Assembly (NCBI RefSeq): GCF_004010195.1
Contig: NC_057722.1
Location: 55,394,295-55,458,294, forward strand
Reading direction: 5' to 3'
DNA from: Chiloscyllium plagiosum
Taxonomy: Eukaryota
DNA: 64,000 nt
The notes under the pieces were generated by a model, which saw nothing but the letters and a program-made list of their open reading frames with translations, had not been told where the DNA came from and did not search any database. Both the position numbers and the translations under genes were made by a program. Of this stretch, positions 33,012 to 60,903 are shown in pieces (position 1 is the first letter of the stretch; each line of letters opens with the position of its first letter).

Positions 33012-34227
33012 CTGAAAGCGTGTCAAATCCATGATTATTTATGTGAAATTATTTTATGTATACGCATGATGAGGTTTATGCAAATCAAAAGCAACTATGA
33101 GGAATTAATCAAATAAGCTAGAGGTATTTGCTATATTTTTGCCAGCACCCAAGCAACAAAGTCCAAACTTAACCTGATGGCATTGAGATGCTCATTATTC
33201 TTTTATTTTTCATTGTTTTAATTCTGGTAGAATTGAGGTTGAAGTTTGAACAGCTGCAAGCTTTAGAAAGAGAAGAAAACCAACATGAATATTGCTGTTG
33301 GTGGCTGGCCTGGAAGATAATGCAATTTAATTTCTAATCTAAGGAACACTGGACAATGTGACACCATATGTTGCCATGTCCAGGGCCGGCAGCTAGGTAG
33401 GGGTTGAGCTGCTCAGTCAAAGGAGTATTGATGTTAACCAGAAAACTACAAAGATTATTGATTTTGTTTTTTAAAAAAGAAGAGATAAGTAAATCAGTTT
33501 TAAATGGTTTTGCCAGATGCAGAATGATTTTAGAAGGATTGGCTGCTGCTTTTTTTCACTCTCTAGTTTTATATCAAGTTAAAGAATTGTTGAATGTTCT
33601 GAGAAATGAATCATAGTCTGTAAGAACTAAATACCTAGTATTGGAAGCATAATACAATTACTCACATTCTGTGGTGACTTTGAAATTAGGTACACAGTTA
33701 CATGTTTGTGATTAGCTTATTTTCCAAGGATTACATGAAGGCTTAGCATCCATTGATTGAAATTGTTGTGTTTGAATTGACATTATATATCCTTTTGTTA
33801 TCTTCTTAATTTATCCCTTAAATGTGACAGTCATTCTGCCTGACTGTAAGTAGGGATGTGACAGAATTGTTTAAATTATACATATTAGTCAGATTACCTT
33901 GTTGTTTAGCTTTGTCCTACTAAAATAGAAATATTAATCGAGTAACTTTTGTTTACATTATAAACTCGGTCTCCAAGATCTATTATTAGTAAAAGTTTAA
34001 TCAGGAACAATTTGGTAATTACTAGATCATTGAATATTTTAATTTCACCATGTTGTGAATCCAGCAATAGAAAGACAGATTTGGTTTGGCTCTTACCCTT
34101 AATCATAACAATGTGAGAATTTGGTCCAATCTCTGACTGCCAAAATGACAAGGAATAAATGAAACAAAGTCCAGTCAATCAAGGTTGGTTGCTTTCATGG
34201 TGTTTCGAAGACTCTGATAAGTATTGG

Positions 34228-34374
34228 TTAAATCTTTGGCAAGGGCTTCCATGTCTTTCCTGGGCATTTAGGAAATACCAGACGATCTGTGACTTGTTCC
34301 GTTTGTTCCTGTAGTAATTCTGAGACACCAAATGGCCCCCAACCCACGTATTGAAATGCATCAAACATTGGTGT
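34228..34374 (-). CDS. kng1: Paralog B exon 7 (kinin-like segment and C-terminal CPG motif, stop)
   Basis: ttcatag|TPMFDAFQYVGWGPFGVSELLQEQTEQVTDRLVFPKCPGKTWKPLPKI*; 147 nt. Confidence 0.85.
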   Translation of the reverse strand, partial: TPMFDAFQYVGWGPFGVSELLQEQTEQVTDRLVFPKCPGKTWKPLPKI

Positions 34375-37300
34375 CTATGAAGTAACAGATTTAAAGTTAA
34401 TTAACTACCCTTGAAATCCATCAACAATTACAATAGGTTGCACACCATAGACAACTTGTACATTGTTCTCAGATGCTTGACAAATACTGTCAATAATAAA
34501 ATATTTATCATTATTCCTGATGTGAAAAATTTATCTAAAGATCTGATGGCATTCATTATCAACCTTCAATGTGGAGGGAGGACTTCCTTTGTTGGCTATT
34601 TATAATGAAATTGTAAGCTCATCTGTGAACAATGGGTTTATAGTTAACATGCCTGGGTTAAAATGTTAGTCAAAGGTGGTTTGCATAATCCCTGGGTCCT
34701 TGAAAATTGAACACTAGCATCTCAATGATGCTGAAGTTAGTGGCAATGAGTTAACAAGAGGCCAAATATTAGTCAAAGACAACCCATCAGCAAGTGACTG
34801 CATATACTAAGGCAGAAGCTAAATGATGAATGGGCCTTGTTATTGAGGTCCAGCAAGCCTCACTTTATGGAGGAGTATGTTCAGCTGTTATCTGCAGGGT
34901 ATGCCACCATGACTGCTCTGACAATTAAAAACCTCTTTCACCCCTTATACTGCCAATGGGTTTCACTTCCACTGATAAATCTATGCCCAGCCGCTGGTGG
35001 AATGTTGCAGACTATGGCTGATGGATACAGGAGGATCCAGGCTAGCAGCAAACCCAGGAACAATGACACACCAACTCAAAGGACGAGGAGCACTCAGCTC
35101 AGGCAGAGAGGATAGACTCATGGGCCACTCAGGATACATGAGGCGGATGGGTATTTTGGCTCTAACTCTATTTTTCCTGGACATAAATGAAGAAGCTCTT
35201 CCTATCTATGACAGAGCTCAGCTATATTGGGGGTTAGATCAAAGCTAGGTGCAGCAGACCGTCTTGGAACGTCACTTGGCCATCAATGTCAGCATTTGTT
35301 TTAAATTGTGGAGATGACTTACTAACCCCATACTTTCTGTTTGCTTTTAGCAGCTACAAATGAAAGGTCATTTTTGAGTCTGTCCAATTGACCAGCTATA
35401 TCTGATGTTCCCCTACTGGACCATGACAAGATGCAGGTCTCCAGTGGGTATGGGGACAGGGTAACAGTGACCTTGAAAGGGTTTTCAGATGAGATGTAGC
35501 CAAGATAAACTGTGTGAGCTGATGGTTAAACAGTGACTAGGGTGAGAGAATATCAGCCATGCAGGCTATGTGCCATAAGCAGCTTTACGAATGCTGTGAA
35601 GACCAATGATGGATTGCCATTGTTTGACAAGGTGCACAGTGGCTTTTTAAAGATGGCTCTAGAGGGATCCAGGGTTACTGGTTGTTCAGGGATAACCATA
35701 CAGAGAAAGGTTAATCTGGGAACAGTGAGCAATAAGATTGATGAGAATCAGGCATGAGGACCACCATGAGGCAAGGAAGGGAATTAATGAAGCTCAAGCA
35801 CAGATTTAACGTTTCAAGTACAATCTGACTCTTCTGCAGAAGTTTTCTCAAGTTCTGAAAAAGAGGTCATACCAGATTTTAAGCATCAACTATGTTTCTC
35901 TCTCCACAGATGCTGTCAGACCATTTGCGGTATTTAGCTTTTAGTTAATGAAGTGAAATTGAGTAAGAAGTCTCATTGGGATGGTAAGAAGCCTTCCAAA
36001 AAAAACTCAATACAACTTCCACTTAGCCAAAAACACACAAGATTTGCTCCAATAAGTTTCTTTAAACTTCAGACTTATTAGAATTGGAAGCAATTTGTTT
36101 CTAGATTAGAGTGGTGCTGGAAAAGCACAGCAGGTCAAGCAGCATCCAAGGAGCAGAAAAATTGATGTTTCGGGCAAAAGTTTTTGCCCAAAATGTCATT
36201 TTTCCTACTCCTCGGATGCTGCCTAACCTGCCGTGCTTTTCCAGCATCACTCTAATCTAGACTCTGATCTCCAGCATCTGCAGTCCTCACTTTTGCCTAG
36301 CAATTTGTTTCTGACTAGCTGGCAATTAACTAGTAGTAATCAGCTTGTGAAAATAATTATAAATACAGAAGGCCCTCAAATATCCAAATATCAGATTATC
36401 CGAACGAGATCTCGAGGTCCCGATAGAAACATTATATCAAAGACGTGTTCCAATATTGATCGCGCCTTTTGTTTACAGTGATTAAAAATGAACTCGGCTC
36501 ACTGAAATGCTGCTGAGAATAGTCCTGGACTTTGGTGGGAGCCCAAGCACCGTCTCCAAATGACTTACCTCCCACCCTGTCTCTCTCCCCCCACACTCTC
36601 CCTGGAGTTCTACACAGGCTTGTTCCCTATACCCCCTTCCCCAGGTAATCTCTCCAACATTGTCCAGTACAGGGCAAAGGTGGAACCTGTCAAAAAGTTG
36701 CAGTCAAACGTTGTATGCGTGTGTGTATGTGGAGGGGGTGGGGGGAGTGGTGTTGGACGGGGTAGCACATGGGGGCAGAGCTGGATGGGGGGCAGGTGGG
36801 GGGTTGGTCTTGCATGGGGTTGGGGATGGTGTTGGACAAGCGGGCGGGTGGGAGGGGCGGTGTTGGACGGAGGGCGGGCAGGGGGGGAAGCGGCTCGCGC
36901 ACAGTGTGGTGCTGCCTAGTCTCCTGAACGGGAATCAGACTTAACAGAGAACACCGAGCCCCAGAGGAAAGGCATTGAATCAATTAACCGAATAATCAAT
37001 TATCCAAACAAAATAGTGCCCGCCCATCTCGTTCGGATAATCGAGGTTCTTCTGTAGATCATTTTCAAATGCTGGTTAAAAATCTAATTGATAATATATG
37101 GAGTTTAACACATTAGGGAAAGAATAAATTTTAAAATTACCGGAAATGGCTCATAGGTACAGGTTATATCCACCGCTGTGTAATTCATCCAAATCTGCGT
37201 TATTACTTCTGAGTGGCAGAACATCTATAACACAAAACACATGATCATTTAACCTCAAAAAAGTAAAGATTTTAGGTTTCCCAGTTAATACATCTGTTAT

Positions 37301-43300: not shown

Positions 43301-46300
43301 GAAAACAAGGTGGAAGATAGTGATAATAAAGTGGAGGTGCTGGTATTGGACTGGCATGGACAAAGTTAAAAATCATACAACACTAGGTTATAATCCAACA
43401 GGTTTATTTGGAAGCACTAGCTTTTGGAGCGCTGCTCCTTCATCAGGTGGTTGTGGAGCATAAGATCATAAGACACAGAATTTATAGCAAATTTGCTCAA
43501 AAAATGCACAATCTGCAGGCAGTCAATCCATTAAATATTTTGTAAATTCCACTTTGGGAATAGAACCTGTCTGACTCAAAATTGGGATACAGCCAGACTC
43601 TAACCTCACACCTCTAATGCATTGTCTAAGCTGAGACAATACCTTTTGTTACGAAATCTTAATTTATTTCAAGACTATGACTTAAAAGAAGTTCTGAGAT
43701 TTACATATTAATGAACTGAAACCTGCAACCCATTCTAAAAGATGAAAGACTTAACAACAATCCAAGTTTGTTTAATATATCATTTCAGTTACATAGCACT
43801 TACCTTTTGCTATAAATTCTGCGTCCTATGATCTTATGGTTCACAACCACCTGAAGAAGGAGCAGCACTCTGAAAGCCAGTCTTCCAAATAAACCTGTTG
43901 GACTATAGCCTGGTATTGTGTGATTTTTTTAAAAATGTTAATGAAGAGACAGCTTTACTCATTCTCAAACTCACTGATTGCAACTCACTCACTGACACTG
44001 CACTTATCTTTAAAGGCAGGATCAGCACATCAGGCATCAATGGCTCACAGGGTGGTAAGCATTACTCAAAGATTAATGAAGAACTGCCCAGTGTGTACTC
44101 AAAATAACCAGAGGAAAGGCCTGTTTAAAATTGGAACCTGGACTGTGGTTACAGCCATTTGGGCAGTGAGGTTAGGCAGGTTGTCATGGCTACTCTTTGG
44201 CCTTTCTCCCTTATTGAAGGATACCATGAACTGTGTCATGTTAACTACTGACAGTTGAAAAAAATTAAACCAAAGACAATTCTGATGTTTGAAACTGTCT
44301 TGCATGTGAGTGATCCGTGAGGTATTCATAAGGAGAAGTGAAGCAGGTTTAATGTTTAAAAGTTACTCACTTTTTCACCGTCAGCCTTTGCATCACAATT
44401 GGCAGCTCTAATATTGGAATCCTCCTTGCTGCATTCAGTTTCCTGAATTGTAAACTTCAATTCATACTTCATTCCAGCCACCACCTGTTTAAAAAAATAA
44501 TTTTATTAATGCAAAATTTCAGTGCAATGTATCATTATTGTATATAATTATCATTAGAATGGCCCACATTTTGCCTCCACATTTATATTTTACTGGCTGT
44601 TTAAAAATACTGCAGAAAATGTGGAAGAAAACAATATGAGTTCAAAGGCAAATTTGACATAAAATCAACAGTTTGAGAAGGTGAGTATCTAGGCCTTTGA
44701 AACACCCAAATCATGTGAAGTTGAATTTTCTCAAGACAGCAAGCAGACAAAAAGTGGTAGTAGATCCCAGCACTTGAGATAATTTTACAATTTACTTTGG
44801 AGATGTAAAGGGGCTTAACTGAGCCAGACACCATGATTATAGTTTTGCAGATAGTGAGCTGGTGATGGCCAGGGCGCACAGACCTCATGTGTACCAGCAG
44901 ATAGTCTGGAGCTCTACTTACAGATTAAATGCAAAATCTGTTAAATACTAAAAGACATTCATCCTATTACAAGCCTTTTTAACTGTTATTTATGCTACCT
45001 ATACTTGGTGCTGCCTATAGCTTTGCGGATTCCACCAAGTATGCTGGGCTGGGGAAAAACATCAAAATATGTTAGTATTCTTAAGCACCTTGGCAACAGT
45101 TGGTAGTTTCTCAAAGATTTTCATATCAAAAAAGTTCAATTTATTATGAAGCTGATTTAATGGGCGCCAATGAAACTATTGAGTGGTTCCTTTTGTTTTA
45201 CAGCAATGTAGAGTGTAAATTACATCATGTTCATGGTTAGACTCTACTCTGGATTGAGCTGGAGTCTCCTGCTTAGCTGGGAAATAGGAAGATCCAAAAG
45301 ATGATCGGAATCAGATCTCTCAGAAAACAAAAAAAAACTACATTAATTGTTGACATTCTTGCGAAGAAAAGTCTAACCTGATAAGTGAACGTGAATACAA
45401 TGTCATGCTGAAAGTAATTTGTATAGTTGCTCTCTGTGTTAAACTTTGCTACAGCAAGAGCAATTATTTCATTTAATTTGGGGTGGTCTAGCTGATGTCT
45501 TGGACATCCAGGACATGGAGGTCTTGGCCTATTCCCTATGGAAGAATGACACAAACAATTAGTATACAGCCAAACAGATAAAACTATTCATAATAGAGTC
45601 ATAGAGATGTACAGCATGGAAACAGACCCTTCGGTCCAACCCATCCATGCCGATCAGATATCCCAACCCAATCTAGTCCCACCTGCCAGCCTTAAAATCA
45701 TACAATGTTATTTAGTCCATCACCCCCATTATGATTTCCTGAAAGGACTTGTCACTTATTCTTATTTCTCTCTCCTTTCCCCATGACTTGCAAAGTGTTA
45801 CTTTATAAAACTAATCAAATTTATTTCTAAATTCTATTATGGATTTGCTTCCACCCTTTTCTGAGGTAAGCTGTTCCATGTTCTAAATAAATTTGAAAAC
45901 CAAAATATGTTCCAAACTATTCCCAGTGTTTGTAATATATCATCTATAGGTAACATGTTCCATTATTTCTGTTATATTTAGGGCTTTTAGTTTGGTTTAA
46001 TTTGTAGAATTCTCCCTGCTCAAAGCATCTGAGCTTGGTTCATTCTCCACAATTTTAGCAAAAGGGATAGAATTTACATCAGTTTCCATAAATTATGAAG
46101 CACAATCTCAGAAAATCTGTTGGACCAACATAAAAGATTGGTGAATCCGAAGTGTGGTGAGACCCTAAAATATTAAGGTGTAACCCACTTCTGATGGAAG
46201 GATAGTGAAGCAGTTTGATTAGATCAGATTCCCTACAGTGTGGAAACAGGCCCTTCAGCCCAATCCTCCAAAGAGTAACCCACCCAGATCCATTTCCCTC

Positions 46301-52300: not shown

Positions 52301-55300
52301 CCTGAAAATGATTGTTCAGAACAGGTGATCATCTGAGGGTATGACAGAAAGTACAAGCTTTCCCAAGGTATCCAGATGTAACCTTTTGGATCCATTTAGA
52401 TCCTTCTAGCATGTGAATTATTGATTATGCACCTGAAAATGAGATATAACTTATACTTAAAACATACACTATATTGCATTTAGCAGTTTATCATACCTGA
52501 ATTTATTGTGCAGTTATATTCAGTTATTTCAGCTTTTTCTCTGAGTTTTTCGATGAACGTTTTCAACTTACAGTGACCCATAGTCTAAAAACAAGTATCA
52601 GAATTAAGAAAAAGTTGCAATTTACATATAAGGAACACCAAAGTCTGAATTTTAATTAAAGCCTACATTGTGTCAACATGCTGCTGTAACCTATAACTCA
52701 GCACTGTTTGGAATGAGATGTATTTTAATCAAACAATTTTGGAATAGTTGTAAATATTTGTTGATGGTGTTTTCAGAGTAAATAATCAGAAAACTTACAG
52801 CTTCTGCACGTGGTCTAATGTTGCATTCTTTCCAGATTGTTTCATTTCCAACAGGGCAATCTGTTTCTTGGATAAAATAATCAATACTATATATTTTTCC
52901 TTGTAATTCCTGTGAATAACAGATTTATGTCAGTAAGTATTCTTGATGCTTCAGTTTAAACAATGAAATTGAATTCATATAGAACCTGTTTATAACATTT
53001 TGAGTTCATCAAGGTTTAAAAATATTGATACAATCAATGATCTTATTCTAACTCCTAATTTAATATACTCGGCCATAGACCTGTCAAAGTAATAGAATTT
53101 ATACAGCAAACTATATGGTATCCTGTATAAAGTATTTAAGTGTGATGTCTAACAGATACAAAGATTATAAATATGTTAATTATTGGGACAATCTATGTAA
53201 TATAAAATGGAGAAGTTAAGACATGTTTCAACTCTTGCCTACAAGCAAGCCTGCAAGGTTTGTTTTGTATGGAAACAATGGAGCCTAGATTTCTTTACTG
53301 GAAATAAGGTAAAAAGTATTCAAGCACAGGAGAATCGACATTTCGGGCATAAGCCCTTCTTCAGGCTTATGCCCGAAACGTCGATTCTCCTGTTCCCTGG
53401 ATGCTGCCTGACCTGCTGCGCTTTTCCAGCAACACATTTTCAGCTCTGATCTCCAGCATCTGCAGACCTCACTTTCTCCTAAAAAGTATTCAAGCCCATG
53501 AACAACGAGGAGACTCAAAGTTTGTGCGAAGATTTGTAGCTAGGGTGCTCGTTGTTGTGGTTCTGTTCGCCAAGCTGTCCGCTGTCAGTTCCAGCTATCC
53601 GCTGCAGTGGCTGGTATATTGGATCTAGGTCAATGTGGAACTGACATCCGGAAGCGGCAGATTCAAACCACTATAAATGCCAGAGAAAAGATCACAGAAG
53701 CGCTTCACAGGAGGCTCCCAAACACTGAGGATGTCACCTAGACAGGGGACGAAACGTCTGCAACACAAATTCCCAGCTCGGCGAACACAACCACAACAAT
53801 GAGGAGACTAGTTGTGCTAATATTGGGTAAACTATTGGTATCCTGGTCTTATAGGAATGTAAAGCTTTATACATGATTATACTTAAAGTGGCTGTTTAAC
53901 TGGAGATTAAATGAAGTTAGGAGCTGGAAAGACAGCTAATTTATTTTTCAACCATTAGACAAGACATATCAGTTCATGTTGCTTTATCCTGTGCTTTAAG
54001 CCAGTACTGTTACTTGCATGTTGAGATACCAATCTGGAATATCTCTGTACCGTGAGTGCCTGCATGTATACTGTCCCTGAGGATGCTTGCTCCTTACTTC
54101 TACCTCTACTTCAAATCCTCATGTATTATTTACACTCGTATAAAACAGTGTCTAAGTTCTTTCTCTTGTGCTTGTTCTAGACTGGTCACTGCTATTTTAC
54201 TGATGTCTGAGTCATGTGATCAGTGTCATCAACATGATTTACAGAAATCTCATCGCACCATGCACATGATGTGAAGATGCTGGTGTTGGATGTGGGATGA
54301 ACAAAGTTAAAATTCACACATTACCAGGTTAAAGTCCAACAGTTTATTTAGAAGTAAACCTGTTGGACTATAATCTGATGTTGTGTGATTTTTAACCATG
54401 CACATGCTATTGAGATAGACTTGTGAGAGGAGAACAGACTATAAATGGCTGTTGAAGGATTGACTTAGAGGGTTTTCTTATGTTACTTCTGAATCTGTCG
54501 GACATGTCAGTTTGTTAGGATCTGTGAAAGAGAGCAGAGAGCAGTCAGCAGAATTCAGGTTGGAACTTGCATTCAGATTGAAGAAGCGAGGGTCAGAAAA
54601 TTTGAAATGAGGCTGGTAGATTAATCTAGCTTTGGCTAGAAGGATCTATCTCCAGCATAATGCTTACCATGAAAGTCAGTTTGAGGGTTCAAAGTTGAAG
54701 GACGATAATAAGAAAAAGAAAGCAAGCCACTGGGAGCTGAAACTAGCTTTAGACTAGTTCCTGGAGAATTAAATGCCCACTGTAGTAACATAGTATAATC
54801 ATGCAAGGGGATTTTCAACCATTTAAATGTTAAGTGGGAAATGTCTTTTTAGACTCGTAACTATTTACAGTACAGATGGACGCCATTTAACACATCATGT
54901 TCACACTAGTCCACAAAGATTAGTTACTCTAATACCATTTTCCAGCTCTTGGTCAACAGTCCTGAGGCTGTGGCAATGCAAGTGAATATGTAAATACTGC
55001 CTAAATGTTAGGCTAATTTCTGACTCAACCACTCTTTCAGGCAGCCAAACTCCCACCACCTTTCTAGGTGAAAGCATTTTTTTCTCCTCAAGTATCCTCT
55101 TAGCCTTCTACTGCTTGGCTTAAATCTATGTTTCCTGATTATTGACCCCCCTACTGAAGGAAAAGTACCTTCTTAACCAACATCTCTGTGAACCACACTT
55201 CATTCAGGTTCCCTCACAAGCGTCACTGATCCATGCCTTAGCAAATAAAGGCAAGTATCCCTATGCTACCTTAACCACCTTAAGGGATCTATAGATGTGC

Positions 55301-58300: not shown

Positions 58301-60903
58301 TGAGATTTTTATTGGACTAGCTGGTGGCACAGTGGTTCGCACTGCTGCCTCACAGCGCTAGGGACCCAGGTTCAATTCCAGCCTCGGGTGACTGTCTGTG
58401 TGGAGCTTGCACATTCTCCACGTGCCTGCCAGGGCTTCCTTTGGGTATTCTGGTTTCCTCCCACAATCCAAAGATGTGCAGGTCAGGTGAATTGGTCATG
58501 CTAAATTGCCCAGATAGGTACATTAGGTAGGAGAATGGGTCTGGGTGGGTTACTCTTCAGAGGGTCAGCGTGATGAAGGGCTTTTGCCTGAAATGTCAAT
58601 TTTCCTGCTCCTCGAATGCTGTGCTTTTCCAGCACCACTCTAATGTTGACTGTAATCTCCAGCATCTGCAGTACCCACTTGTGCCTAGAGGGTCAGTGTG
58701 GACTTGTTGGGCCAAAGGGCCTGTATCCATACTGTAGTGAATCTAATCTAATCTAGTATTGTAGAGTGGGAGATAAAAGATATGCTTCAGAGAAAGGAAT
58801 TGCAAATAGTTGTTAGTTAATATTCTCTGTTAGACTTACAGAATACAGTTCTTAAAGTTTTACTTCAAATAGTGACTTTTGGGATAGTTCTTTGCCTCTC
58901 GAATTTTAACAGATTACAGCATGGGGTGAATCTTTTCTGTGTGGCCAGTTGAAATTAGCAGAGGCAGTTACCCCATGTCATAATAAAACCCAGACCATGA
59001 ACTATAGCAGCAGGTCAATCTATTAGCTCAAGCTGATCTGTTCATGATCTATTCCTTTTGTATGGGCAGCTAGGTATTTTGGAAGGGCTTCAGAGGACTG
59101 ATCAGAGGCCATCATGACAGAGAAGCTAAGACTACCAGTGCATGTATTCTGCCTTTTAAATGTACATCATTCTAGAGCAGCAATAGAATGGATGTCAACA
59201 CTAGAAAAGGAAGATGGGGATGGCCATAGAAGATCTGGCAAAGTACATTTTAAGGAAGAATTTTGAACACAGGAGACTGGATTGGCATGAAAGACATTGC
59301 AATAGATTGAGACTTGTGGCAGTGTCTTGCTGCCTATTGTCCAATACGAGACCAGAGAAATCAAGTCTATGTTTATTATCCTTGCAAGCCAGCTTGCAAT
59401 ATGTAAAACAGAGGACAGTGATTATTGGCCTGTTTCTTTAGAACATAGAACATAGAACAATACAGCACAGAACAGGCCCTTCGGCCCACGATGTTGTGCC
59501 GAACATTTATCCTAGCTTAAGCACCTATCCATGTACCTATCCAATTGCCACTTAAAGTTTGCCAATGATTCTGACTCTGCCACTCCCACAGGCAGTGCAT
59601 TCCATGCCGCCACCACTCTCTGGGTAAAGAACCTACCCCTGACAGCTCCCCTTTCCTTCCACCCTTCACCTTAAATTTATGTCCCTTNNNNNNNNNNNNN
59701 NNNNNNNNNNNNNNNNNNNNNNNNNNNNNNNNNNNNNNNNNNNNNNNNNNNNNNNNNNNNNNNNNNNNNNNNNNNNNNNNNNNNNNNNNNNNNNNNNNNN
59801 NNNNNNNNNNNNNNNNNNNNNNNNNNNNNNNNNNNNNNNNNNNNNNNNNNNNNNNNNNNNNNNNNNNNNNNNNNNNNNNNNNNNNNNNNNNNNNNNNNNN
59901 NNNNNNNNNNNNNNNNNNNNNNNNNNNNNNNNNNNNNNNNNNNNNNNNNNNNNNNNNNNNNNNNNNNNNNNNNNNNNNNNNNNNNNNNNNNNNNNNNNNN
60001 NNNNNNNNNNNNNNNNNNNNNNNNNNNNNNNNNNNNNNNNNNNNNNNNNNNNNNNNNNNNNNNNNNNNNNNNNNNNNNNNNNNNNNNNNNNNNNNNNNNN
60101 NNNNNNNNNNNNNNNNNNNNNNNNNNNNNNNNNNNNNNNNNNNNNNNNNNNNNNNNNNNNNNNNNNNNNNNNNNNNNNNNNNNNNNNTTTAAACCACCAA
60201 ATTGAAACTGCTTTATGCTGACTTTCTGAACATAAATTCATTCTAAGTAGCTATGAATCACTGAACAGTAAGTCAATGATGTGGCCTGGTGGTCCAATAT
60301 GGACATATAATACATTGGGTAGGATGTTGGTGAAGCATAGAGGTGTCTTGTATTGGTGTGGCACATTGGAGTTCTAATACAGTGTGTATGGCTCTGTAAA
60401 ATATGATTGTCAATATTATTTCCACAAGCAAATTCCTCATCTCAACTACTATCTAGTGAACATATGGACCAGAAGCAAAGTAATGGGAAGCTATGGGTGA
60501 TATATTTTCTCCACATGATCAGTCAAAGTAACTACAACCTGACAACTTACATATATATGCTCAAAATGTTTTCCAAAAGAAATAGAAAATGCACTTAAAT
60601 ATCATAATGCAAGGAGAAATATTATTACACTTGTATACACATATTACACAATAATAGAGTAAACGATTTGCTTACCTTTGCTCTAGCCCTGAAGACATAG
60701 TGAAGAGCAAATTTATGACCACTTGTCAGGTTGGCATTTAATTTACGAAGAGAGAAATCTACACCAGCTAGAACGTCTGGATCATCACAAGAGATAGGCT
60801 CAAGTGCAATATCTGGATGTGACTTAAGTAATGGTATTGGTGGTGAATCAGTATTAACATATAACAGTTGAATGATAAAGAAAGCAATGTGCAGAAGTTC
60901 CAT
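34228..60903 (-). CDS. kng1: Kininogen-like gene, paralog B (complete, 7 coding exons, 309 aa; two cystatin domains, kinin-like segment, CPG tail)
   Basis: join(60903-60676, 52909-52799, 52584-52497, 45535-45378, 44484-44371, 37224-37141, 34374-34228). All introns are GT-AG with phases 0,0,1,0,0,0. The 930 nt give 309 aa plus stop with no frameshift. Motifs: signal peptide, ISCDDPDV, QETDC..IWKEC, CPGCP, Q|VVAG, QETECSKE, PKCPGKTWK (human HMW kininogen has PKCPGRPWK). Confidence 0.88.
36103..36298. mobile_element. Penelope-derived fold-back insert with 14-bp TSD
   Basis: agcaatttgtttct at 36089-36102 and 36299-36312; inverted arms. Confidence 0.85.
36366..37054. mobile_element. Non-autonomous Tc1/mariner (Tigger/pogo-like) DNA element
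   Basis: TA-flanked imperfect TIRs cagaaggccctcaaatatcc / ggataatcgaggttcttctg, with internal gattatccgaac repeats. Confidence 0.7.
37141..37224 (-). CDS. kng1: Paralog B exon 6 (end of cystatin domain 2)
   Basis: tgttatag|MFCHSEVITQIWMNYTAVDITCTYEPFP|gtaatt; 84 nt. The C..V..xW..C pattern matches the last cystatin exon of kininogen, and it ends in phase 0. Not in the ORF track. Confidence 0.85.
37305..37922 (+). mobile_element. CR1 3' fragment
   Basis: RT C-terminal motifs and a cttatggtcttatg tail. Confidence 0.85.
38472..39916 (+). mobile_element. 5'-truncated CR1 LINE interrupted by a Penelope-derived insert
   Basis: NYRPISLTSVVGKILE, YLDFQKAFDKVPH, GVPQGSVLGP, KFADDTK; a 5-N gap at 39606-39610. 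Confidence 0.92.
38691..38882. mobile_element. Penelope-derived fold-back insert with 15-bp TSD
   Basis: aacccagt(a/g)gatgtg at 38676-38690 and 38883-38897. Confidence 0.85.
41025..41225 (-). mobile_element. CR1 3' tail
   Basis: (atagaac)n tail followed by caggccctttggccc. Confidence 0.75.
41400..42420 (+). mobile_element. Old CR1 endonuclease-region fragment
   Basis: IYRPP and IGDFN remnants. Confidence 0.6.
42488..42706. mobile_element. Young Penelope-derived insert: perfect 187-bp palindrome with hammerhead cores
   Basis: 93-bp arms at 42488-42580 and 42582-42674 with no mismatch; flanking repeat ccttttttaaaacata at 42473-42488 and 42707-42722. Confidence 0.92.
42584..42611 (+). ncRNA. 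Minimal type I hammerhead ribozyme motif (mirror copy on the minus strand)
   Basis: CUGAAGA-a-GGGC-uuau-GCCC-GAAAC-GUC; palindromic ACGU replaces helix III. Confidence 0.7.
43330..43930. mobile_element. Second-family Penelope-derived element with long inverted termini, absent from the homologous intron of paralog A
   Basis: Inverted arms at about 43365-43500 and 43805-43930, each with a cac-CTGA(T/A)GA-aggagc..-(G/A)AAAGC-type motif; A and B homology resumes on both sides. Confidence 0.75.
44371..44484 (-). CDS. kng1: Paralog B exon 5 (QVVAG loop)
   Basis: taaacag|VVAGMKYELKFTIQETECSKEDSNIRAANCDAKADGEK|gtgagt; 114 nt. Confidence 0.92.
45378..45535 (-). CDS. kng1: Paralog B exon 4 (start of cystatin domain 2)
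   Basis: ttccatag|(G)NRPRPPCPGCPRHQLDHPKLNEIIALAVAKFNTESNYTNYFQHDIVFTFTYQ|gttaga; 158 nt. Confidence 0.9.
46217..46518 (-). mobile_element. V-SINE (HE1-like)
   Basis: tRNA head, V domain and tail. Confidence 0.85.
46793..47122 (-). mobile_element. V-SINE (HE1-like)
   Basis: tRNA head, V domain and tail. Confidence 0.85.
47335..48608 (+). mobile_element. Penelope-like retroelement, 5'-truncated and degenerate (RT thumb, GIY-YIG, 3' repeat)
   Basis: FHPNLKFT..LPFLD..TDIYYKPT, LVLTFHP, FTCTSSNIIYFIWCSRCGLL*IRET, PVAIHFNS, LIFHLGRLQP..MNIEF. It ends in the same sequence as the short inserts, with a decayed hammerhead at 48515-48541. Confidence 0.88.
48878..49850 (-). mobile_element. CR1 LINE 3' fragment
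   Basis: MEFRRMRGDL and GVPQGSVLGP remnants, plus 3' tail. Confidence 0.85.
50529..50750. mobile_element. Penelope-derived fold-back insert with TSD
   Basis: actcccataat(g/c)cagag at 50512-50528 and 50751-50767; CTGATGA-aGGGCttatGCCC-GAAACATC at 50663-50690. Confidence 0.85.
52497..52584 (-). CDS. kng1: Paralog B exon 3
   Basis: tttttag|TMGHCKLKTFIEKLREKAEITEYNCTINS+G|gtatga; 88 nt, phase 0 to 1. Confidence 0.88.
52799..52909 (-). CDS. kng1: Paralog B exon 2
   Basis: ttcacag|ELQGKIYSIDYFIQETDCPVGNETIWKECNIRPRAEA|gtaagt; 111 nt, typical second-exon size for kininogen/fetuin cystatin domains. Confidence 0.9.
53326..53479. mobile_element. Penelope-derived insert with 16-bp TSD
   Basis: taaaaagtattcaagc at 53310-53325 and 53480-53495. 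Confidence 0.88.
53516..53794. mobile_element. Third-family Penelope-derived insert with hammerhead motif and 15-bp TSD
   Basis: aacaa(c/t)gaggagact at 53501-53515 and 53795-53809; partly inverted structure. Confidence 0.8.
53725..53758 (+). ncRNA. Minimal hammerhead ribozyme motif
   Basis: CUGAGGA-u-GUCaCCU-agac-AGGgGAC-GAAAC-GUC, with ca/ug closing helix I. Confidence 0.7.
54269..54394. mobile_element. Penelope-derived mini fold-back (family 2) with 12-bp TSD
   Basis: accatgcacatg at 54257-54268 and 54395-54406. Confidence 0.75.
54860..56820 (-). mobile_element. Old degenerate CR1 LINE
   Basis: Remnants of YMDFSKVS and QHGF motifs, plus a 3' tail. Confidence 0.65.
56825..57052 (-). mobile_element. 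V-SINE fragment
   Basis: V domain and tail. Confidence 0.8.
57423..57704 (-). mobile_element. V-SINE (HE1-like)
   Basis: tRNA head, V domain and tail. Confidence 0.85.
57836..58985 (+). mobile_element. Probable solo LTR (Gypsy-like) containing nested inserts
   Basis: tgttacga ... tcataata termini (decayed inverted repeat) with a 4-bp aaac duplication on both sides. Confidence 0.55.
58322..58755 (+). mobile_element. V-SINE inside the LTR, itself interrupted by a Penelope-derived insert (58573-58686)
   Basis: Full tRNA head and V domain; TSD agagggtcag(c/t)gtg at 58559-58572 and 58687-58700. Confidence 0.85.
59440..59687 (-). mobile_element. CR1 3' end running into the gap
   Basis: (tagaaca)n tail and FFTQRVV motif. 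Confidence 0.8.
59688..60187. other. Assembly gap (about 500 N) in intron 1 of paralog B
   Basis: Run of n. Confidence 0.99.
60676..60903 (-). CDS. kng1: Paralog B exon 1 (signal peptide and start of cystatin domain 1)
   Basis: MELLHIAFFIIQLLYVNTDSPPIPLLKSHPDIALEPISCDDPDVLAGVDFSLRKLNANLTSGHKFALHYVFRARAK; donor AAG|gtaagc; 228 nt, the same length as paralog A exon 1. Confidence 0.9.

Follow-up and report, generated by a model that had tools for sequence, protein, structure and literature searches.

The window, that is, the whole 64,000-nucleotide stretch of Chiloscyllium plagiosum contig NC_057722.1 that was analysed, carries kininogen genes on its minus strand. The first, termed paralog B, is a seven-exon gene running from 60903 to 34228, with GT-AG borders at all exons; its spliced exons reproduce the 309-residue protein P0001, labelled kininogen-1-like. 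Exons 3 and 6 had no candidate in the splice-site scan and were placed using P0001. A second copy, paralog A, lies downstream of B on the same strand and extends beyond the window, its exons 6 and 7 being located about 15 and 21 kb to the left. The features are as follows.

60676..60903, minus: paralog B exon 1, coding part, with a hydrophobic leader and the start of the first cystatin domain
52799..52909, minus: paralog B exon 2
52497..52584, minus: paralog B exon 3
45378..45535, minus: paralog B exon 4, CPGCP linker and helix of the second cystatin domain
44371..44484, minus: paralog B exon 5, VVAG of the QVVAG inhibitory loop
37141..37224, minus: paralog B exon 6, end of the second cystatin domain, spliced to 34374
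34228..34374, minus: paralog B exon 7, coding part, with linker, kinin slot, short tail and stop, predicted to be disordered
34354..34356, minus: Phe at position 0, P1 of the putative N-terminal cut
34330..34353, minus: kinin slot, octapeptide QYVGWGPF, bradykinin positions 1-8 as aligned with skate GITSWLPF and rodent RPPGFSPFR
34330..34344, minus: conserved core GWGPF, from column counts over 22 rows
34249..34266, minus: CPGKTW motif near the C-terminus, with the tail cysteine typical of kininogens
12287-12060, 9553-9443, 8306-8219, 4235-4060 and 2469-2356, minus: paralog A exons 1-5
L003:4729-4646 and L004:9059-8784, left of the window: paralog A exons 6-7

A 500-base gap of N letters occupies 59688-60187, inside intron 1 of paralog B. 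Upstream of B, some 26-33 kb to the right of the window on the minus strand of L009-L010, weak cystatin-type exon matches were observed; they probably stem from a relative of fetuin or of histidine-rich glycoprotein.

The junction of exon 6 with position 34374, on which the sequence-only reading had depended, is borne out by assembled sequence: the joint 37141 to 34374 is present in the contigs of two of the four runs examined (X1 and X8), and loose contig ends at 34375 in the other two (X2 and X6) match exon 6, all four runs being presumed to be RNA. A raw-read run, X19, gave 0 reads here. The X8 contig comes from a diverged organism, and its slot is identical to that of paralog B; the coding differences downstream of the slot number three, two silent and one from Arg to Pro. 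A mis-spliced or intronic origin of the slot was rejected, because the GT-AG exons rebuild P0001 and the exon 6-7 joint occurs in contigs. As a separate observation, run X5, labelled as a mouse metagenome, shares a 0.47 fraction of its sequence words with 33900-34500: it contains that part of the words of the interval, and mislabelling or contamination is the probable cause.

Paralog B is thus a spliced, fish-type kininogen with two cystatin domains. The family PF00031 is on record for P0001, and the AlphaFold model shows two cystatin-type helix-and-sheet units followed by a tail, residues 262-309, which includes the slot and has a pLDDT below 50. The second cystatin domain carries the QVVAG loop (QxVxG) and the CPGCP linker (CxGC); by analogy with other kininogens, it is likely to inhibit papain-like proteases. 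Further marks of fish-type (type 3 cystatin) kininogens are the tail cysteine and a slot encoded by the exon that follows the final cystatin domain. A His-rich segment, as in D5/D6 of high-molecular-weight kininogen, was looked for in the protein and none was found. In a tree of 27 kininogen rows, built with no fetuin rows and with a bootstrap that had not fully settled, paralog B groups with the kininogens of other cartilaginous fishes.

The minus strand from 34374 to 34228 translates as TPMFDAF-QYVGWGPFG-VSELL...CPGKTWKPLPKI-stop. The proposal that QYVGWGPFG fills the kinin slot holds, as the segment falls at the bradykinin position when aligned with skate and rodent kininogens. Its first codon, Gln, is read from 34353-34351, and position 9 is encoded by 34329-34327 as Gly, not Arg. 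Compared with the canonical bradykinin nonapeptide, paralog B has Gln1, Tyr2-Val3 and Gly9 in place of Arg1, Pro2-Pro3 and Arg9. The canonical hallmark of basic residues at the release sites is also lacking: there are 0 Lys or Arg residues between positions -7 and +20, in line with the lack of neighbouring Lys/Arg noted in the first reading of the locus, and the tryptic fragment that contains the slot is 59 residues long. The stop lies 33 codons past the octapeptide. Beyond it, at 34143-34220 on the minus strand, another frame gives a weak match to an A-type tail (35% over 26 residues, E 8.6e-4), and the short tail of B therefore likely arose by truncation.

Comparison with other kininogens changes the meaning of these absences. 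A tryptophan-centred W-x-P-F/L motif is present at the slot in 22 of 25 cartilaginous-fish kininogens, the exceptions being the chimaera, the B model of the whale shark and an alternative isoform from thorny skate, whose counterpart does carry the core. When cluster members are added and the chimaera is omitted, 27 of the 29 sequences from sharks and rays carry the core; some of these rows are closely related or paralogous to one another, so they do not count as independent. The conservation on which a signalling role had been made to depend is thereby confirmed. Among the 27 slots, Arg or Lys at position 9 occurs in none. In bony vertebrates, by contrast, the slot was found in 66 of 73 kininogens and ends in Arg in all 66. 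Among 144 unnamed representatives, the motif occurs in 31, with 31 of 32 hits Arg-ended and the N-terminal three residues variable. Loss of Arg9 thus marks sharks and rays, whereas loss of Arg1 and of Pro-Pro is widespread and not confined to them. The missing Arg9 and Pro-Pro, which had been read as peculiarities of paralog B, are therefore the general shark and ray state. The chimaera model P0243 lacks the W-x-P-F core, shows a His/Gln/Arg-rich, faintly D5-like stretch behind the slot, and may be a genuine kinin-less case.

For conservation scoring, the three rows without a core were dropped beforehand, leaving 22. In these, W and P are each present in 22/22, F in 20/22, and G4 and G6 each in 19/22. 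The conservation of the five-residue core is 0.93, against 0.31 before and 0.36 after it, and the core is the sixth-best five-residue window of the protein in the same rows. The GWGPF motif is not due to chance; it forms a conservation island within a disordered tail, as for a released ligand. The residues ahead of it are freer: position 1 is Arg in 11 of 27 slots and Gly, Ser or Ala in another 11, with the Gln of paralog B found as well in P0008 and P0248. At position 0, 15 of 27 slots have Phe, Leu or Met, and the others have Pro (5), Arg (3), Ala (3) or Thr (1), a mixture that argues against a single N-terminal protease rule. On these alignments, the shark and ray consensus ligand would be x-x-x-G-W-G-P-F.

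The closest known relative of this putative ligand is skate bradykinin, which was reportedly isolated by Anderson et al. in 2008 from plasma with porcine kallikrein and is said to be more potent than its Arg9 form. The sequence GITSWLPF, named as a divergent skate kinin when the locus was first described, does occur in the same slot of the little-skate kininogen P0018, flanked by Met and Ala; we take it to be the isolated peptide, with ends at Met|Gly and Phe|Ala. In four of ten skate-cluster sequences with GITSWLPF, the Ala is followed by Val-Asp and not by Lys, so an adjacent Lys is not required. A second little-skate kininogen, P0249, carries REAGWGPF, which indicates that the skate kinin comes from the more divergent copy. 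Placed in the shark and ray comparison, GITSWLPF appears as an outlier of x-x-x-G-W-G-P-F and GWGPF as the common form. Paralog B displays the sequence mark of a skate-type (des-Arg9) elasmobranch kinin, W5-x-P7-F8 without Arg9, in a family whose definition rests on the skate peptide and its sequence in P0018. Accordingly, the suggestion that paralog B is a kinin-less kininogen is unlikely, given the lineage-wide core and the skate kinin in the same slot, and the shark peptide is likely to be an ordinary member of the skate-type family.

The reading preferred here, with a probability of roughly 0.6, is that paralog B gives rise to a skate-type kinin with a C-terminal Phe, which is probably freed by cleavage behind Phe residues and would act on a charge-altered B2-like receptor. 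This reading has to be weighed against the history of the tandem pair. The slot context of paralog A is AAP-RYVGWGPF-SMPQ, so that YVGWGPF is identical in the two paralogs, whose whole proteins are about 49% identical. A B-specific loss of the kinin was rejected, since the core is also present in paralog A and in another 25 sequences from sharks and rays. The comparison of the same exon in A and in orthologs, which had been proposed for this locus, showed that the core is shared and that position 1 differs. Position 1 is encoded by CGA (Arg) in A and CAA (Gln) in B, and the B orthologue of a sister species, P0247, which is 95% identical, reads DSF-RYVGWGPF-G; Gln1 is therefore a recent change. 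In the 27-row tree, B and the whale-shark model (100/100, stem branch 0.79) are sister to the carpet-shark A group (97/92), from which the duplication is likely to have been a carpet-shark event followed by faster change in B. The whale-shark B model, P0002, has another C-terminus and lacks the slot, which may reflect a model error or a real loss.

Several of these features fit relaxed selection on B and count against the preferred reading. On an alternative view, the slot would still function as a kinin in A, as it did in the ancestor, and would be decaying in B, which would then serve mainly as a cysteine-protease inhibitor. The long stem branch, the truncated tail, the recent Arg1 to Gln, the slotless whale-shark B model and the retained QVVAG loop all speak for such a course. 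Nevertheless, YVGWGPF has stayed identical in A and B while the remainder of the proteins diverged, the slot is unchanged in the diverged organism of the X8 contig, position 1 is occupied by Gln in P0008 and P0248 and by Gly, Ser or Ala elsewhere, and B has no inhibitor feature that A is missing. Decay in B is hence considered unlikely, at something like one chance in several.

A second alternative concerns the manner of release. Trypsin-like enzymes could cut at the nearest basic residues, with exopeptidase trimming afterwards or with a longer active peptide as the product, and B would then be a poor precursor. The kinin of teleosts is made by trypsin-like enzymes, according to the accessible text of PMC3835742, and in 8 of the 22 kininogens trypsin would leave the core on a short fragment of 9-14 residues. 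The other 14, however, would yield fragments of 23-59 residues, and no downstream column holds a conserved basic residue, the best being 6/22 at position 11. From -7 to +1, no basic residue occurs in 9 of 22 rows, and in 2 of 22, paralog B and a sevengill-shark protein, there is none on either side. The reported ends of the skate peptide, Met|Gly and Phe|Ala, likewise argue against cuts of this type. Tryptic release is accordingly regarded as improbable, more so than decay.

For the Phe-ended kinin favored here, a different route may be envisaged. Paralog B would be secreted, as its hydrophobic leader suggests, and the slot would be exposed in the disordered tail. A chymotrypsin-type or tissue-kallikrein-type enzyme would then cleave the Phe|Gln bond and, at the other end, Pro-Phe|Gly, so that QYVGWGPF would be left with its C-terminal carboxylate free. 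Pro-Phe is a classic site for chymotrypsin and chymase. Release from B by cuts after Phe through a non-tryptic protease is likely and is the best guess at present. The literature offers indirect support. KLK1 is targeted by the Phe-Phe-Ser loop of kallistatin, and thus P1 Phe is accepted (PMC7356578), and kinins can be set free by enzymes other than kallikreins, chymase among them (PMC13331952). Prekallikrein, FXII and HK are all listed as missing from whale shark (PMC10499198). In PMC3835742, the enzyme that produces kinins in fishes lacking plasma kallikrein is described as unknown, and the kininogen of cartilaginous fishes as a key gap.

Candidate receptors for such a peptide are encoded in the same genome. 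By motif search, two intact B2-like receptor genes were located on C10:

L032:580-1635 and L033:580-1605 (G000:C10, 3.33 and 3.38 Mb): near-identical B2-like bradykinin receptor genes
L066:1465-2061 (G000:C10, 3.35 Mb): third, broken partial copy between them

The two intact genes differ at 6.55 (Arg vs Gln) and in the C-terminal tail, and both have Arg at 6.58 and Ser at 7.32. The open frame of L066 stops in the second extracellular loop. The best solved match of the shark receptor is B2R with 334.6 bits, followed by B1R with 221.5 and AT1R with 176.9. Among the 21 matches, there was no B1R orthologue, with 116 of 1314 candidates scored and identification by search extending to the next two matches after the B2-like cluster, which were best to AT1R and AT2R. 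No receptor frame adjoins GSKIP in C10:1-180000, the receptors sitting near 3.33-3.38 Mb. A gene taken from the first receptor motif search was rejected, since its frame, judged by eye, reads chemokine-receptor-like.

The receptor residues were compared over eight sequences from three species and one shark family, seven of them with TM6-7, numbered according to the accessible text of bioRxiv 10.1101/2021.05.27.446069. The pocket for Pro7 and Phe8 is kept, with L2.53 and W2.60 (each position readable in 6 of the 7 with TM6-7), I3.32, W6.48, F6.51 and F7.40, and the shark receptors retain Arg4.64 and Glu7.28. Arg6.58 and Ser7.32 are present in 7/7 receptors with TM6-7 and Arg6.55 in 6/7. In other peptide receptors, C-terminal carboxylates are bound by an Arg or Lys at position 6.55. 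Human B1R and B2R are described as having acids at 6.58 and 7.32 (bioRxiv 10.1101/2021.05.27.446069). A B1-type pocket, with Lys3.33 and Arg5.38, had been predicted beforehand and was rejected, as the shark sequences have neither residue (Tyr3.33 in 8/8, Val or Met at 5.38 in 7/7). Shark receptors are also changed at Tyr7.43 (to Cys), Arg6.62 (to Phe) and Thr7.35 (to Asn), residues that matter in human B2R by the account available in the same preprint, and so the shark receptor might prefer another ligand.

In the last step of the proposed mechanism, the B2-like receptor would take up Pro7-Phe8 in its conserved hydrophobic pocket, and Arg4.64 and/or the new Arg6.58/Arg6.55 would hold the carboxylate. 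With Asp6.58 and Asp7.32 gone, the N-terminal three residues would be loosely read. Co-folding of the receptor with B residues 247-276 gave a score of 0.39, against 0.02 for the best of three controls; its runs agree in at least 42% of contacts, with a partner pLDDT of at least 41. In validation, which does not extend to peptides, 51 of 78 solved pairs attained the mark, as did 2 of 108 mismatched pairs, and passing scores of 0.60 or less came from 5 of the 78 solved pairs and from all 4 mismatches that passed. The prediction lends weak support to the pairing, and its signal may derive from likeness to solved kinin-receptor complexes.

Least probable of the alternatives is a non-hormonal role of the motif in the intact protein, as a docking site, protease bait or modified Trp: the absence of a conserved N-terminal release signal and the resemblance of W-x-x-F to a C-mannosylation site would suit it, but it is very doubtful given that the motif coincides precisely with bradykinin in position, that its segment is not predicted to pack against the domains, that the B2-like receptor has been retained with its Pro-Phe pocket intact, and that vasoactivity is reported for the skate peptide from the same slot (Dasiewicz et al., 2011).

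Beyond the skate-type precursor proposed for paralog B, it is conceivable, at less than even odds, that sharks and rays have a separate kinin system. It would consist of an Arg-less octapeptide ending in G-W-G-P-F, a Phe-specific, non-tryptic kininogenase and a B2 orthologue that acquired its des-Arg preference independently of B1R (Asp6.58 to Arg, Arg6.55 and loss of Asp7.32). If so, paralog B, having no basic site at all, would be the cleanest substrate for finding the kininogenase. The paralog B peptide by itself is one more of a kind known from skate; more weight falls on the lineage-wide pattern and the charge change of the receptor. With a consensus ligand and receptor residues open to mutation, the co-evolution of ligand and receptor can be tested directly, and so can the identity of the kininogenase. 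No description of the shark and ray slot consensus or of the receptor changes was found in the accessible literature, subscription journals being mostly outside the search, and alignments of shark kininogens may already be in print in the Ponczek et al. 2020 supplement.

The known systems each share part of this arrangement. The fish-type kininogen kng1 of teleosts resembles paralog B in its two cystatin domains, with QVVAG in the second, its kinin slot in the last exon and the lack of a His-rich D5, as far as the accessible text describes it (PMC3835742; PMC8706920). Unlike B, the teleost slots are Arg-ended and preceded by Lys or Arg; moreover, the B gene is a tandem duplicate in carpet sharks. 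The mammalian des-Arg kinins, acting on the B1 receptor, have the Pro-Phe end with a free carboxylate that is proposed for the shark peptide (bioRxiv 10.1101/2021.05.27.446069, accessible text). In mammals, however, the des-Arg form is a trimmed metabolite, whereas in the shark it is the encoded form, and the shark receptor is B2-like without the Lys3.33 and Arg5.38 of the B1 receptor. Rat T-kininogens are, like the shark pair, duplicated and of low-molecular-weight type, with a kinin released by unusual proteases according to the part of PMC13331952 available; T-kinin retains the bradykinin sequence, and the shark duplication is independent. Skate bradykinin of Leucoraja erinacea, for which vasoconstrictive actions are reported (Dasiewicz et al., 2011), comes nearest: it agrees with the slot of paralog B in position, length, W5, P7, F8, the absence of Arg9 and non-basic ends, and differs from it as GITS-W-L from QYVG-W-G.
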